Positions 35,344 to 39,993 of a stretch of 64,000 bases of DNA are shown here, piece by piece; position 1 is the first letter of the stretch, and each line of letters begins with the position of its first letter. Both the position numbers and the translations under genes were made by a program. The DNA is taken from the NCBI GenBank assembly GCA_965242865.1, contig CBDETK010000013.1, positions 4,128,001 to 4,192,000 on the forward strand, in the 5' to 3' direction. This DNA is from Candidatus Latescibacterota bacterium (lineage in GTDB: Bacteria; Latescibacterota; UBA2968; UBA8231). The notes below the pieces were generated by a model. The model was not told where the DNA came from. It saw only the letters and a program-made list of their open reading frames with translations, and searched no databases.

Positions 35344-35853
35344 TTAGTGCGAGTCCTGTCGCCAGCGACCGAGACGCTTGCGGGTTTCCGCCTTGGGCAA
35401 CCGGCAGCGTGGGTGAGTGCTGATTGCTTTAAGACCTGAGTATAGCTCATCGGTGCTTGCAGCGGAAACCTCAAACATCCGGTCTAGCAGCCACAAAACA
35501 CCGTGACAATCGACCTGCTCTTCGTTGGCCAACCTACGCAGCGGACCATCACCCGTGAGTAAGGTCCAAGTGTTTCTTGCCGCAAGGGCCAGAGCGAAGC
35601 TATCCGGTAGCGAGATCAACGGCTGCTTGCTCCGGTAGCCAAGGGCACAAGCGACGCCAGTGTTATCTAGTTCCTCGATCCGCAAGCCGAGCCTGAGCAG
35701 ATTATCGCCTCCGTGGTTTTTTAGTTCTCGTTCGTACAAAAGGTCCGGGACGGCAAACAGGAACGGGAGGCGAAAGCAGGTCTCTAGCAATGCCCCGCGC
35801 TCGAGATCAATCAGGATGGATGTGTCGGAGACCAGCACGTTCATAGGCTTCAT
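35344..35853 (-). CDS. PIN-domain protein (DUF3368/DUF4411-like putative RNase toxin)
   Basis: VLVSDTSILIDL, YEREL, SLPDSFALALA, LLTGDGPLR, HGVLWLLD. Overlaps the upstream gene end; alternative start at 35844. Confidence 0.85.
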   Translation of the reverse strand: MKPMNVLVSDTSILIDLERGALLETCFRLPFLFAVPDLLYERELKNHGGDNLLRLGLRIEELDNTGVACALGYRSKQPLISLPDSFALALAARNTWTLLTGDGPLRRLANEEQVDCHGVLWLLDRMFEVSAASTDELYSGLKAISTHPRCRLPKAETRKRLGRWRQDSH

Positions 35854-36922
35854 CGCACTCCAAGCCGGGCGGCTCCTCCATGCGCTGGTTCAACTTGTGG
35901 ACCGATGTTTCCAGCAGTTCGGCGGCCTTGGCCTCGGAGACCGCGCCCTCGGCCAAAGCGCGAAAGCACAGGCGCTCAAAGCGTTGGGGGACTTCGCCCT
36001 CCATGGCGTAAGGCTCTTTATAGGGCGGTTTGCGCCAGCCCAAACGGGAAAATTCGTTAAATAGTCGCCGGAACAAGGTTGGGCTGAAGATGCCGAGATC
36101 CTTGCAGCGATAGGTCAGTGCCTGAACGCTCACGCCGAATAGCTGCTTGAGGGCAAAAAGTTCACTCCATCCGATGGACGTGCGGTGCTTGCCGATTGCA
36201 GCCCACAGCACCTCGGCGGGCATGAGAAACGCCCCGGCGAAACGGTAGGCCGCCGTCTCGTTATCTACTTTTGCGCCGACCTCCAAGACCAGATGCCCCA
36301 ACTCATGCGCCATTGAGAGACGCTGTCGCTCTCCCCAGTGACCGCTGTTGACGACGAGGACGGGTACGGTGTCCTTGCCGACGCGGCGCACCCGCGCCAT
36401 AAGGCCGTCGATATTTCCAAGAGCACAAGAGAGCACCTTGATGCCTCGTTCTTCGAGTAGTTCGACTAGATTGGGAATAGGGTCGAGCCCTAAATCCCAG
36501 TGAAGGCGAAGACTATGGGCGGCGCGGTCGGCTTCTAAGGGATCGTTGACGACGGGATAGGAGGCTCCGCGCGGCTTGTCCCAGTCGAGGCTCGGCAAGC
36601 CGAGAAACTCCTCGACCATGAGGTAGCGTTCCAGTAAGTGCAGGACTTTAGCTTCGACCTGCATCTGCTCTCGTTTGCTCGTGAGACTTTGCTTGCGAAA
36701 CTCAACGCCCTCCAGCACCATTTCTTGGTCGCCGACCAAGTATTCTACGGGAACTGAGAGGGCGTCGGCTAGCGCAATGAGGACGCCCGAGCTTGGCATG
36801 GATTCGTCGCGCTCGTACTTGCCGATCGCCTGCGCCGTTACGCGATTTCCAATGCGTTCCTCCAAGGCGCGAAGGGACAGGCCAGCGGCAGAACGAGCGA
36901 GCTTGAGTCTCTGTCCGATCAT
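35807..36922 (-). CDS. XRE helix-turn-helix + ImmA/IrrE (M78, DUF955) Zn-metallopeptidase fusion
   Basis: IGQRLKLAR..GLS..QAIGKYE..P HTH. RLSMAHELGH zinc motif. E..AYRFAGAFLMP. FGVSVQAL. Confidence 0.92.
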   Translation of the reverse strand: MIGQRLKLARSAAGLSLRALEERIGNRVTAQAIGKYERDESMPSSGVLIALADALSVPVEYLVGDQEMVLEGVEFRKQSLTSKREQMQVEAKVLHLLERYLMVEEFLGLPSLDWDKPRGASYPVVNDPLEADRAAHSLRLHWDLGLDPIPNLVELLEERGIKVLSCALGNIDGLMARVRRVGKDTVPVLVVNSGHWGERQRLSMAHELGHLVLEVGAKVDNETAAYRFAGAFLMPAEVLWAAIGKHRTSIGWSELFALKQLFGVSVQALTYRCKDLGIFSPTLFRRLFNEFSRLGWRKPPYKEPYAMEGEVPQRFERLCFRALAEGAVSEAKAAELLETSVHKLNQRMEEPPGLECDEAYERAGLRHIHPD

Positions 36923-36937
36923 GGATGGTATTCTCCC

Positions 36938-36980
36938 TTGACAGTTTACAAATAGAATATATATTTTTTACATTGTAAAC
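36938..36980 (+). promoter_or_regulatory. Sigma70-like promoter toward CBASS overlapped by an inverted repeat (candidate operator)
   Basis: TTGACA (36938)-16 bp-TATATT (36960). GTTTACAA (36944-36951) and TTGTAAAC (36973-36980) form a perfect inverted pair. Confidence 0.6.
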
Positions 36981-38480: not shown

Positions 38481-38917
38481 GTCTGACGATTAGTAAACAG
38501 GTTGAACTCATGCGGCAAAGGTGGCCAGATTTCCAAGTGATCAATCGGACGGGTCGCTTGGTGCGATGGGAGGGACGGCTTCGACCCCTGAGCCAGATGT
38601 ACACGGTTCAGGTCGCTTTCTACCGGGAATGCAAAAAAGGCAGTGCCGAACATCCACCGGACGTAACGGTGATTGACCCGCCTCTGCGCCGACGAACTGA
38701 AAAGCCGGAAGAGCCCATCCCACATCACTACCAGAACCGGAATTGTCCTGAACGGCCCTTGCTATGTCTCTATGACCCGGCCACTCAGGAATGGCATCCC
38801 CGGAAACCAATCGCCCATACCATCATCCCTTGGACGATTGACTGGCTGGTTTGCTATGAGGGTTGGCTTGCAACAGGCGAATGGATGGGCGGCGGTCGGC
38901 ATCCAACAAGCGAGTAG
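38477..38917 (+). CDS. Prokaryotic E2-like (UBC-fold) protein of short type II CBASS
   Basis: GTGA overlap with the CD-NTase stop. WEGRLRP..YTVQV, IPHHY, candidate catalytic LCLYDP, EW, TIIPWTIDWL..YE.WLATGEWMGGG. Confidence 0.8.
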   Translation: MSLTISKQVELMRQRWPDFQVINRTGRLVRWEGRLRPLSQMYTVQVAFYRECKKGSAEHPPDVTVIDPPLRRRTEKPEEPIPHHYQNRNCPERPLLCLYDPATQEWHPRKPIAHTIIPWTIDWLVCYEGWLATGEWMGGGRHPTSE

Positions 38918-38925
38918 ATGCCGCA

Positions 38926-39993
38926 ATGTTTGATAGCGATGAGGGAGTACCTCCAAAACGATCATCAGGTACGCTTAAGCATCGCCGCGTTCAACTTCCT
39001 TGGCCAGAAGATCGGAAATTTCGCATTCTTGCGATTGATGGGGGTGGCATTCGTGGAATCTTCCCAGCCACATTCCTAGCGGGACTGGAGGAACGCTATC
39101 TCGGAGGGGGGTCTGTAGCCCAATACTTTGACCTCATCGCGGGAACCTCAACCGGGGGTATTATTGCCCTTGGGCTCGCTTCGGGACTTACAGCCGCCGA
39201 ACTGCGCGATCTCTACATTGAGCGTGGGGGTGATATATTTCCCCCTATTCGCAGCGATGTTATTGGGTCCGCAAAACGCTGCTTTTGGGGCTTCTACCAG
39301 TATTTCAAGTTTCGCTACGACCGGAAGGCACTCATGTGCATTCTGCACGAGACCTTCGGCAACCGGAAATTTGGTGAGGCTCAGACGCGGCTGTGCATCC
39401 CTTCCTTCGATGGCCTGTACGGAGAGGTGTACATCTTCAAGACCCCGCATCATCCCGATTTTCGCAGGGACGCCAAGGAGCAAATGACAAAGATAGCGGC
39501 GGCTACGTCAGCCGCGCCGACGTTTTTTCGACCGCTTCAAGATGGCGGCTATACTTTCATTGATGGGGGAGTCTGGGCAAACAATCCTATCATGATCGCT
39601 TTAGTCGATGCCTTGTCCTGCTTCTCTGTCCCACGGGAGCGCATTCGCATTCTGAGCCTAGGCTGTGGGGATGACCAGTATGATGTTGGTAAAACGAAGA
39701 CGCTGCTAGGGGGTATGTTGGCATGGAAGGACATCATATATGGTGCGATGCGGCTTCAGTCTCTCAACGCGCTTGGTCAGGCCGGACTGCTGATAGGTGC
39801 GGACAGGATTATCAGAGTCAACGCGCCTACGTGTAAAAAGAAAATCCGACTGGATGACTGGAGCCGTGCTGTGGCGGAGCTACCCAATGCAGCAAAAGCA
39901 GCCCTTGACGAGTTCGGCGAAAACGCGGCGGCCGTATTTCTAATGGAACCCGCTGCCCCTTACCGGCCAATTGTCGCCGAGTCCTGCTTATAG
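38926..39993 (+). CDS. capV: CBASS patatin-like phospholipase effector
   Basis: RILAIDGGGIRG, FDLIAGTSTGG, FKTPHHP, ATSAAPTFF, DGGVWANNP, ILSLG. Start uncertain (38926 vs 38863). Confidence 0.9.
   Translation: MFDSDEGVPPKRSSGTLKHRRVQLPWPEDRKFRILAIDGGGIRGIFPATFLAGLEERYLGGGSVAQYFDLIAGTSTGGIIALGLASGLTAAELRDLYIERGGDIFPPIRSDVIGSAKRCFWGFYQYFKFRYDRKALMCILHETFGNRKFGEAQTRLCIPSFDGLYGEVYIFKTPHHPDFRRDAKEQMTKIAAATSAAPTFFRPLQDGGYTFIDGGVWANNPIMIALVDALSCFSVPRERIRILSLGCGDDQYDVGKTKTLLGGMLAWKDIIYGAMRLQSLNALGQAGLLIGADRIIRVNAPTCKKKIRLDDWSRAVAELPNAAKAALDEFGENAAAVFLMEPAAPYRPIVAESCL

Follow-up and report, generated by a model that had tools for sequence, protein, structure and literature searches.

Gene content of the locus

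The locus considered here lies in a 64,000-nucleotide stretch of the genome of a Candidatus Latescibacterota bacterium (C13:4128001-4192000; hereafter the window), where an antiphage system that signals through cyclic oligonucleotides (CBASS) stands divergently from a two-gene cassette that encodes a fused helix–turn–helix (HTH)-peptidase protein and a PIN-like nuclease. An earlier note on this DNA had read five genes here, and all of them are present as open reading frames (ORFs) at the coordinates given there. On the minus strand, the cassette begins with a gene for a protein of 371 aa (35807-36922), recognized by Pfam and PADLOC, in which an XRE-type HTH is fused to an M78/IrrE-like Zn-peptidase and which is predicted to act as repressor and antitoxin. 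It is followed by the gene for the PIN-like nuclease of the VapC fold (35344-35853, 169 aa), a predicted toxin identified from its ORF and a fold match. The two reading frames overlap, as the earlier note had indicated; the overlap is 47 nt for the listed ORFs and shrinks to 38 nt with the second Met of the PIN as the start.

On the plus strand, and separated from the fusion gene by a spacer of 301 nt, the operon opens with a CdnG-like CD-NTase of the long form (37224-38480; PADLOC, Pfam and PDB sequence matches), overlapping by 4 nt the gene of a stand-alone E2-like regulator of 146 aa (38477-38917; PADLOC E2 PDLC00877). The third gene encodes a patatin-like phospholipase effector similar to CapV (38863-39993; NCBIfam, PADLOC and Pfam). 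The start of this last gene is uncertain, being either the TTG at 38863 or the ATG at 38926, and the tblastn matches of relatives extend to query residues 1-5.

The E2-CBASS core

The CD-NTase matches the PADLOC Cyclase model PDLC00800 with 486 bits and the Pfam family SMODS with 41.6 bits (cut-off 26.5), and its sequence matches in the PDB are the CD-NTase 7ljn (225 bits) and SmCdnG 8hsb (54 bits). The E2-like protein reaches 164.5 bits with PADLOC E2 PDLC00877 and 55 bits with SmE2 (8hsb_B), and its LLCLY motif aligns with RLCLF of SmE2; the Cys residue in this motif is presumably the catalytic one. The C-terminal end of the cyclase reads ...FFGGERPGQ. The patatin-like protein matches NCBIfam CBASS_lipase with 246 bits (cut-off 200), the PADLOC Effector model with 374.8 bits and Pfam Patatin with 87.3 bits. 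No E1 or JAB gene is found in the 64 kb of the window, in agreement with what the earlier note had read in the operon, and whole-genome profile searches returned two matches to Prok-JAB (PF14464) and three to ThiF (PF00899), all of them outside the window. Therefore, the system is E2-only.

The operon thus combines a SMODS cyclase, a stand-alone E2 with neither E1 nor JAB, and an effector with a family match, whose activation is predicted. Judged from its sequence, the core is an ordinary E2-type (type II short) CBASS with nothing unusual in it. Covalent binding of a long clade-G cyclase to a single E2 has been described for E2-CBASS (mLife 2026, PMC12948482), and the Serratia marcescens system of that work (SmCdnG-SmE2) likewise has a long CdnG-like cyclase and one E2, with no E1 or JAB in the description cited, although it is distant in sequence from the system in the window (E2 55 bits, cyclase 54 bits).

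Two further observations concern the rest of the genome. A 475-aa ORF at C13:1125348-1126262 has both Prok-JAB and ThiF matches, and its architecture is that of the E1-JAB protein found in the 6E operons that adjoin the cassette in metagenomes. Moreover, two weak CD-NTase-like matches (C13:2840033-2840299 and C13:3045819-3046181; E values of 4e-5 and 9e-5, 26-29% identity) may correspond to further nucleotidyltransferase systems.

The HTH-peptidase fusion

Research on the switching of defence operons has mostly dealt with the two-protein regulators CapH/CapP, with CapW and with CapK/CapS. The regulator found here is a single polypeptide, encoded by one ORF of 371 aa in the window and likewise by one in 26 aligned relatives. 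Its Pfam matches are HTH_3 (residues 6-62, 45.7 bits) and Peptidase_M78 (residues 157-274, 65.3 bits), the latter including the HELGH motif. In PADLOC the fusion matches 14 RmrA models, the best with 181.9 bits over residues 4-346, as well as capP (46.7 bits) and capH (20.9 bits). The structural model of the protein (pLDDT 84.5) has as top Foldseek matches CapP (7t5t) and IrrE/PprI (3dti, 8sln), while the matches of the N-terminal domain include ImmR, the N-terminal domain of CapH, and DdrO.

Two sets of residues are conserved throughout the alignment of 85 fusions. The peptidase signature formed by HELGH and E222 (HExxH...E) is present in 84-85 of the 85 sequences, and the dipeptide F75-R76, located eleven residues past the HTH domain, is invariant (85/85). 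CapP cuts CapH between F82 and R83 (Calloji et al. 2026 preprint), and the canonical CapH proteins of sister loci carry Y-R or F-Y-R at the place that corresponds to F75-R76. In the model of the fusion, residues 70-75 form a beta strand, and the other strands assigned by DSSP are all in the peptidase domain except for a two-residue bridge at 121-122. Since nearly all other strands belong to the peptidase domain, we infer that the linker with F75-R76 may run along the peptidase sheet in a substrate-like manner.

In canonical CapP, the C-terminal GAF domain forms a groove for single-stranded DNA (ssDNA), and a cysteine switch is found in a third of CapP proteins (Calloji et al. 2026 preprint). 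The model of the fusion contains no GAF-like sheet, residues 252-349 being all helices, and the sequence has no Cys between HELGH (H210) and E222. This all-helical C-terminus and the missing Cys indicate a fusion without either of the two ssDNA-sensing devices of canonical CapP, and the absent GAF domain raises the question of what would substitute for it in ssDNA sensing.

Linkage of the fusion to the CD-NTase clade

The conservation of the arrangement was followed in 42 loci, retrieved with the CD-NTase alone as query and one genome per species, in which the fusion was located by local tblastn and blastp. These loci (denoted by L numbers) come from Latescibacterota, Nitrospirales, Binatia, Acidobacteriota, Gemmatimonadota, and Alpha- and Gammaproteobacteria. 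A homologue of the fusion, 33-93% identical, is present in 29 of them, and the linkage persists down to 45% identity of the cyclase (L032-L035). The pair is co-conserved with this CBASS clade, which supports the reading of the earlier note. The fusion gene is divergent from the cyclase gene and directly adjacent to it in 25/42 loci; since these were found through the CD-NTase alone, the arrangement is not due to chance. In the other four loci with a fusion, it is found elsewhere in the locus: co-directional in L028, displaced by an insertion in L016 and L020, and decayed in L038.

Three of these exceptions have features of their own. In L028 (704-3568), a single strand carries in succession the fusion, its PIN-like neighbour (28% identical) and the CD-NTase, whose start lies just 11 nt beyond the stop codon of the PIN-like gene; the order is that of an independent rearrangement in which the five genes have stayed together. 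In L016 (6825-9953), fusion and CD-NTase are separated by two inserted pairs, a canonical VapBC and one with a weak likeness to capP/capH, which leaves two regulator sets in tandem, and no patatin match is found at the locus. In L020, the fusion is displaced by 8 kb, and a canonical capP (213 bits) is located about 1.2 kb upstream of the cyclase.

The 13 loci without a fusion are informative about the slot that the fusion occupies. In L011, L027 and L037, this divergent place beside the cyclase is taken by a canonical pair of capH-like and capP genes (PADLOC capP 210-236 bits), and L013 was judged by eye to be near-identical to L011. A capH+capP pair about 2 kb from the cyclase is found in L019 (capP 132 bits), a WYL-domain regulator takes the same slot in L036, and L039 shows putative HTH and M78-like fragments. 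No regulator is shown in L006, L007, L023 and L040-L042. Thus, the presence of capH+capP or WYL genes in the same slot of sister operons places the fusion where known transcriptional regulators sit, which agrees with the likeness to the CapH/CapP arrangement that had been pointed out for this locus.

The control region

The fusion gene is preceded by an inverted repeat, GTTTACAA-N21-TTGTAAAC (36944-36980), found by a repeat search and predicted to be the operator of the fusion HTH. It is overlapped by a sigma-70-like promoter that faces the CBASS operon on the plus strand (36938-36965; TTGACA-16-TATATT, 11/12 consensus matches), the left arm of the repeat abutting this promoter. Most relatives from genomes and metagenomes have this repeat at a distance of about 24 nt from the start codon of the fusion gene, whatever operon is the neighbour, and in the loci with the shortest spacers (82-112 nt; L008, L009, L012, L014, L017, L018, and L029) the repeat is the only conserved element between the two divergent genes. 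Within 80 nt of the fusion start, promoter-like sites are found in the outward direction in 43 of 71 distinct relatives (6.25 in shuffles) and towards the fusion in 49 of 71 (5.5 in shuffles), an enrichment partly due to the resemblance of the repeat arms to TTGACA; a repeat arm serves as the -35 element in several of these sites.

The sequence of the repeat also varies together with the HTH domain. A variant operator, GTTGACAA...TTGTCAAC, accompanies Ser instead of Gly at HTH residue 34, a residue located in the third helix of the model (30-37), which, by the usual XRE fold, we take to be the recognition helix. All 48 rows with G34 have T/A arms, while all 18 with S34 have G in the left arm, 16 of these having also C in the right arm. 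This covariation is suggestive of a fusion HTH that reads the inverted repeat, with only 3-4 independent switches behind it (sign test p 0.25).

A longer spacer, of about 300 nt and with additional elements, characterizes the clade of the window (L001-L005 and, partly, L010 and L015). A third operator-like half-site, TTTTTGCAA/TTACAAAAA with TTTACAA, is located at 37120-37156 on the plus strand and overlaps a second promoter-like site, TTTACA-16-CACAAT (37129-37156), proximal to the CD-NTase; L001-L005, L010 and L015 share TTTACAA at this position. A partly conserved, terminator-like hairpin (37098-37116) followed by a T-run occupies 37098-37124 on the plus strand of the long leader and is found only in the long-spacer clade (the window and L001-L005). 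Operator and CBASS may be coupled in a more elaborate or looser way in this clade.

The window and L001-L005 share a conserved leader (36985-37125), which has the hairpin at its end. An Rfam scan of 35000-43600 at E<=1 gave no match, so that the conserved leader belongs to no known RNA family; it might act as an attenuator or represent a small transcript from the operator-overlapped promoter.

The PIN-like protein and its predicted complex with the fusion

The assignment of the smaller cassette protein to the PIN nucleases is based mainly on its predicted fold. Its AlphaFold2 model (pLDDT 92.9) finds as best Foldseek matches the VapC/PIN structures 1y82 and VapC4 5h4g (E of about 3e-4, TM 0.59-0.66), and all 17 aligned orthologues match Pfam PIN at E<=0.1, the best at 2.4e-5, the window protein itself scoring 19.4 bits with PF01850, under the cut-off of 23.6. 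Across these 17 orthologues, the acidic residues D10, D16 and D84 never vary, and conservation reaches at least 90% at D37, E43, D102 and D124. The protein matches no PADLOC family at E<=0.01 and, hence, no RmrT model. Atlas clusters point to a PIN of the DUF3368/COG2405 type, which is taken as a lead only.

A complex of fusion and PIN was predicted with a score of 0.82, the best control reaching 0.02, with a contact agreement between runs of at least 96% and partner pLDDT of at least 88. The 0.82 mark is reached by 58 of 80 solved complexes and by 2 of 110 mismatched pairs, counts that hold only roughly because the alignments for the complex were self-built; moreover, solved VapBC complexes exist, so that part of the score may reflect memory or likeness. 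On the side of the fusion, the predicted interface takes in HTH residues 41-49 and 59-63 together with the helices of residues 323-345, and on the side of the PIN it covers residues 10-12, 36-43, 61-86 and 102-104, which constitute the acidic face. The predicted complex supports the toxin–antitoxin (TA) relation that the earlier note had suggested for the two proteins.

The fate of the PIN gene was followed in the 26 genome loci that keep an intact fusion and whose downstream flank could be assessed. It is intact in 16, broken in four (L009, L018, L020 and L025) and absent from six (L010, L015, L016 and L033-L035). The reverse situation, an intact PIN beside a broken fusion, was not seen in any genome locus, and L038 has both genes decayed. 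Loss of the PIN with retention of the fusion, and never the reverse in genomes, is what a TA pair predicts. Moreover, since the PIN is absent or broken in 10/26 loci, the association between fusion and CBASS does not depend on it, and a fixed place of the PIN in the unit is not supported.

In L010 and L015 (about 7390-8630), a DUF488 gene (Pfam 55.9 bits) stands downstream of the fusion in the place of the PIN, followed by two more ORFs that, by eye, resemble a nucleotidyltransferase/HEPN-like pair.

A portable cassette

A reverse search, made through an alignment of the PIN in metagenome contigs, yielded 458 relatives, of which the best 80 were fetched; environmental bacteria commonly carry the cassette. 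Wherever at least 300 nt are available upstream of the PIN, which is so in 74 loci, the fusion stands before it; the other six are cut short by the contig end. In 40 loci the contig extends more than 1500 nt upstream of the fusion; their divergent neighbours were annotated from cluster representatives of the upstream ORFs, and 36 of these loci have a neighbour of a defence type. E2-CBASS is found in eight, type III CBASS (cyclase, HORMA, TRIP13 and SAVED-HNH) in six, type I CBASS (cyclase and 2TM effector) in four, a 6E ubiquitin-like operon (Multi_ubiq, Prok-E2_E and JAB-ThiF) in six, a 6A protein (E2_A-ThiF-JAB) in one, and a small DUF2188 gene in 11. In the remaining four, the neighbour is UxuA, an IS1595 transposase, Fic, or an unknown gene beside a type I restriction-modification (RM) system. 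The CD-NTase clade of the window is present in only some of the loci of this search.

The DUF2188 loci can be illustrated by L054 (4623-4868), in which an 81-aa DUF2188 gene (37.6 bits) is divergent from the fusion, as it is in ten other metagenome loci. The conserved unit of these loci consists of DUF2188, fusion and PIN; past the DUF2188 gene, the content differs from locus to locus (RmuC, kinase, AbiEi, integrase, helicase).

On a tree of the 85 fusions, the type of neighbour requires 24 changes, compared with 43.2 in shuffles, and none of 200 shuffles is as low; for the type II neighbour, the starred branches alone force at least eight changes. The type of neighbour is clustered on the tree, yet has been switched many times. 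The cassette is linked to defence operons and is portable, docked to them preferentially but not exclusively, and it is not specific to E2-CBASS. The earlier reading of the five genes as one unit is not supported in this respect, since type I and type III CBASS, 6E and 6A operons and DUF2188 genes are also faced by this cassette, which can stand alone as well.

Relation to known regulators and toxin–antitoxin systems

CapH/CapP-like regulators have been linked to CBASS types I-III and to 6a, 6e and DUF2188 operons (Lau et al. 2022, 10.1101/2022.04.27.489752), and the neighbours of the cassette are the same operon classes. The resemblance extends to the components, namely an HTH repressor and an IrrE-like HExxH Zn-peptidase located upstream of the operon and divergent from it, and CapP 7t5t is the best fold match of the fusion. 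Moreover, both have an aromatic residue followed by Arg after the HTH, F82-R83 in CapH and F75-R76 in the fusion, where cleavage is predicted from the sequence. They differ in that CapH and CapP are two proteins and the fusion is a single polypeptide, which lacks the GAF domain in its model and the cysteine switch in its sequence, and which scores 46.7 bits with PADLOC capP, compared with 132-236 bits for the true CapP proteins of sister loci. The cassette also contains an additional PIN gene, predicted to be co-transcribed.

Apparent capH-capP fusions were noted by Lau et al. (2022) in 15 CBASS systems, together with a fusion by DISARM accompanied by a vapC-like gene. These probably have the same architecture as the cassette, with the fusion divergent from the defence operon and, in the DISARM case, the vapC-like gene. 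They are mentioned there in one sentence and a figure legend, and the parts of the main text cited here analyse neither their PIN partner nor their operator and distribution.

The RosmerTA system (RmrT/RmrA) represents a validated class of HTH-peptidase antitoxins (Millman et al. 2022 preprint; Ernits et al. 2023), with diverse RmrT toxins and a node associated with PIN-like domains (Ernits et al. 2023). The fusion resembles RmrA in its 14 model matches, in the combination of HTH and ImmA-like peptidase in an antitoxin, and in the toxin gene downstream, whereas the PIN of the cassette matches no PADLOC RmrT model, and RosmerTA is described in the cited passages as a stand-alone defence TA rather than a regulator of a neighbouring operon.

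Makarova et al. (2009) and Matelska et al. (2017) had predicted that Xre, COG2856 (DUF955) and PIN together make up a TA, either of three components or fused, and the latter authors proposed that the protease degrades the HTH of the same gene and thereby activates PIN expression. This is the same trio of domains as in the cassette, treated in the cited passages as an isolated TA with no description of an operator or of divergent coupling to CBASS, ubiquitin-like or DUF2188 operons. The CapK/CapS pair is a regulator of defence operons that responds to DNA damage, and the related VapKSC controls a VapC-like toxin (EMBO J 2026, PMC13373217). That is a further case of a damage-sensing type of regulator reused to control a VapC toxin, but, as described there, the two roles are found at separate loci and rely on kinase/STAS chemistry, whereas here one protein is predicted to fill both roles at one locus by proteolysis.

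Given the fusions noted by Lau et al. (2022) and the TA predictions of 2009 and 2017, the cassette is not wholly undescribed, although the earlier note had seen in the five genes the best candidate for an undescribed system in the window. A literature search, which did not extend to Table S1 of Lau et al. with its 15 fusions, found no analysis of the fusion and PIN cassette as a CBASS regulator beyond the passages cited. Added here, and not met with in the papers searched, are evidence for a PIN partner as the rule in fusions of this class, an operator with a conserved geometry, an F-R site that never varies, a clamp predicted to cover the active site of the PIN, and the breadth and modularity of the associations.

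Proposed mechanism and alternative explanations

The best explanation of these observations, with a probability of about 0.5, is that a portable cassette of a dual repressor-antitoxin and a PIN toxin, triggered by self-cleavage, has been placed beside an ordinary E2-CBASS. The genes, their linkage across species, the conserved geometry of operator and promoter and the conserved motifs are observed; repression, self-cleavage, PIN toxicity and the trigger are what we infer. An oligomer of the fusion would bind the inverted repeat and hold down CBASS and cassette alike, because the repeat overlaps the CBASS-facing promoter and sits just upstream of the fusion gene. Meanwhile, its HTH and C-terminal helices would clamp and neutralize the acidic active-site face of the PIN. 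A signal of infection or damage would activate the peptidase, and the fusion would be cut at F75-R76, between the HTH and the peptidase domain, in parallel to the cut made by CapP in CapH. Such cleavage would remove the repressor, thus inducing both CBASS and cassette, and at the same time break the clamp on the PIN nuclease.

If this is correct, the repressor of a defence operon doubles as the antitoxin of a nuclease, and one cleavage couples the induction of a CBASS, ubiquitin-like or DUF2188 operon to the release of a second effector. The modular cassette would also be a compact and testable object, with one defined operator, one predicted cleavage site and one predicted protein interface.

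Several observations count against this explanation. The PADLOC capP profile is covered by the fusion only at positions 21-153 of 242. The suggestion that one fusion acts in both directions, made in the earlier note, is plausible given the conserved repeat that overlaps the CBASS-facing promoter, but in the window no clear fusion-directed promoter passes the consensus thresholds, with only weak candidates of 8/12 matches. The hairpin and the second promoter-like site in the spacer of about 300 nt mean that transcription of CBASS could bypass the operator-overlapped promoter. A second fusion and PIN pair in the same genome (46% and 37% identical, respectively; L123 6765-8349, C13:194785-196348) is an isolated one, with SpoU methylase/LptD genes on one side and an HsdS-like gene with MutS on the other, and the closest metagenome relative (L043, 86-87% identity) adjoins a UxuA gene; such stand-alone copies indicate a self-sufficient cassette, for which the control of a neighbour is not required. 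The fusion match is split in two beside an apparently full PIN in two of the metagenome loci (L044 and L048). To these are to be added the contribution of the repeat arms to the promoter enrichment, the few switches behind the operator covariation, the sub-threshold Pfam score of the PIN, and the two limits on the score of the complex.

The stand-alone copies are at home in the main alternative explanation, according to which fusion and PIN are a self-regulating module of the RosmerTA kind and merely the neighbours of an E2-CBASS that uses its own promoter, all of them being transferred as a block within a defence island. The best PADLOC match of the fusion, RmrA, points in this direction, as do the operator that travels with the cassette beside any neighbour, the second promoter-like site and hairpin in the long spacer of the window, and the type IIG RM enzyme that the low-G+C island (35.3-43.2 kb) also holds. 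Independent neighbours would, however, hardly keep the fusion next to the CD-NTase, divergently or co-directionally, in 26/42 species, nor would spacers of down to 82-112 nt leave room for more than one control region. Sister operons have capH+capP or WYL upstream, adjacent in four and 1.2-2 kb away in two; 36/40 divergent partners come from one short list of operon classes, with random neighbours of the RM/Fic kind in four; and fusion and CBASS stay together after loss of the PIN (L010, L015 and L033-L035). This explanation is therefore considered possible but doubtful. An addiction module, in which the cassette mainly stabilizes the attached defence operon on mobile islands with no signal-dependent regulation, would account for the integrases and transposases near several copies (L052, L054, L060 and L081) and for the frequent swaps of partner (the 24 neighbour changes on the fusion tree), and a stabilization of defence islands by TA systems is discussed by Matelska et al. 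(2017). It is nevertheless very unlikely, since it leaves unexplained the conserved peptidase motif and the invariant F-R site, as well as the strict divergent geometry with shared promoters and the replacement by capH+capP in sister loci.

The role of the PIN could also be chiefly regulatory, as a co-repressor or as a nucleic-acid sensor in place of GAF that controls DNA binding or self-cleavage through the HTH and the C-terminal helices of the fusion. The helical C-terminus with no GAF-like sheet, the absence of Cys between HELGH and E222, and a predicted interface that takes in the HTH (41-49 and 59-63) and helices 323-345 would all fit, and in the predicted CapP-CapH complex the HTH of CapH is packed on the GAF of CapP (Calloji et al. 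2026 preprint). Moreover, the PIN accompanies the fusion in 74/74 loci of the reverse search, though this search was made via the PIN. On the other hand, its conserved acidic active-site residues are those expected of an active nuclease, and it is lost or broken in 10/26 loci that keep the fusion and mostly CBASS too, so that it is not needed for regulation; such loss with retention of the fusion fits the logic of a TA pair. A chiefly regulatory PIN is thus unlikely. Both ideas can be joined in an extended form of the dual repressor-antitoxin explanation, in which the PIN would be the nucleic-acid sensor that replaces the missing GAF and licenses self-cleavage at F75-R76, a single cut derepressing the operon and freeing the PIN nuclease as a self-contained two-tier switch in at least six kinds of defence operon. 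This extension is rather improbable as it stands; if true, a single molecule would fire a transcriptional alarm and a back-up abortive-infection toxin.

The surrounding island

The region of 35.3-43.2 kb has a G+C content of 50-59%, compared with 60-68% in its flanks, and beyond the patatin gene, convergent to it, it contains on the minus strand a gene for a type IIG RM enzyme of 1034 aa (40100-43204; PADLOC REase_MTase_IIG, 210 bits; Pfam N6_Mtase and Eco57I). The low G+C content and the presence of this enzyme beside CBASS indicate that the region is a small defence island. The enzyme was considered as a further member of the unit and rejected, since among the CD-NTase loci it stands beside the patatin gene only in L001, L003 and L004; it is taken as a neighbour within the island. 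The island has a sulfatase gene (33946-35331) on one side and on the other a PhyH-like dioxygenase gene (43486-44256), both named from a reading of their translations. Many of the related loci stem from metagenome-assembled genomes, and a check of sequencing runs listed no RNA run that contains the region. Most or part of the region is also contained in sponge metagenome runs (X5, X7-X9 and X14).

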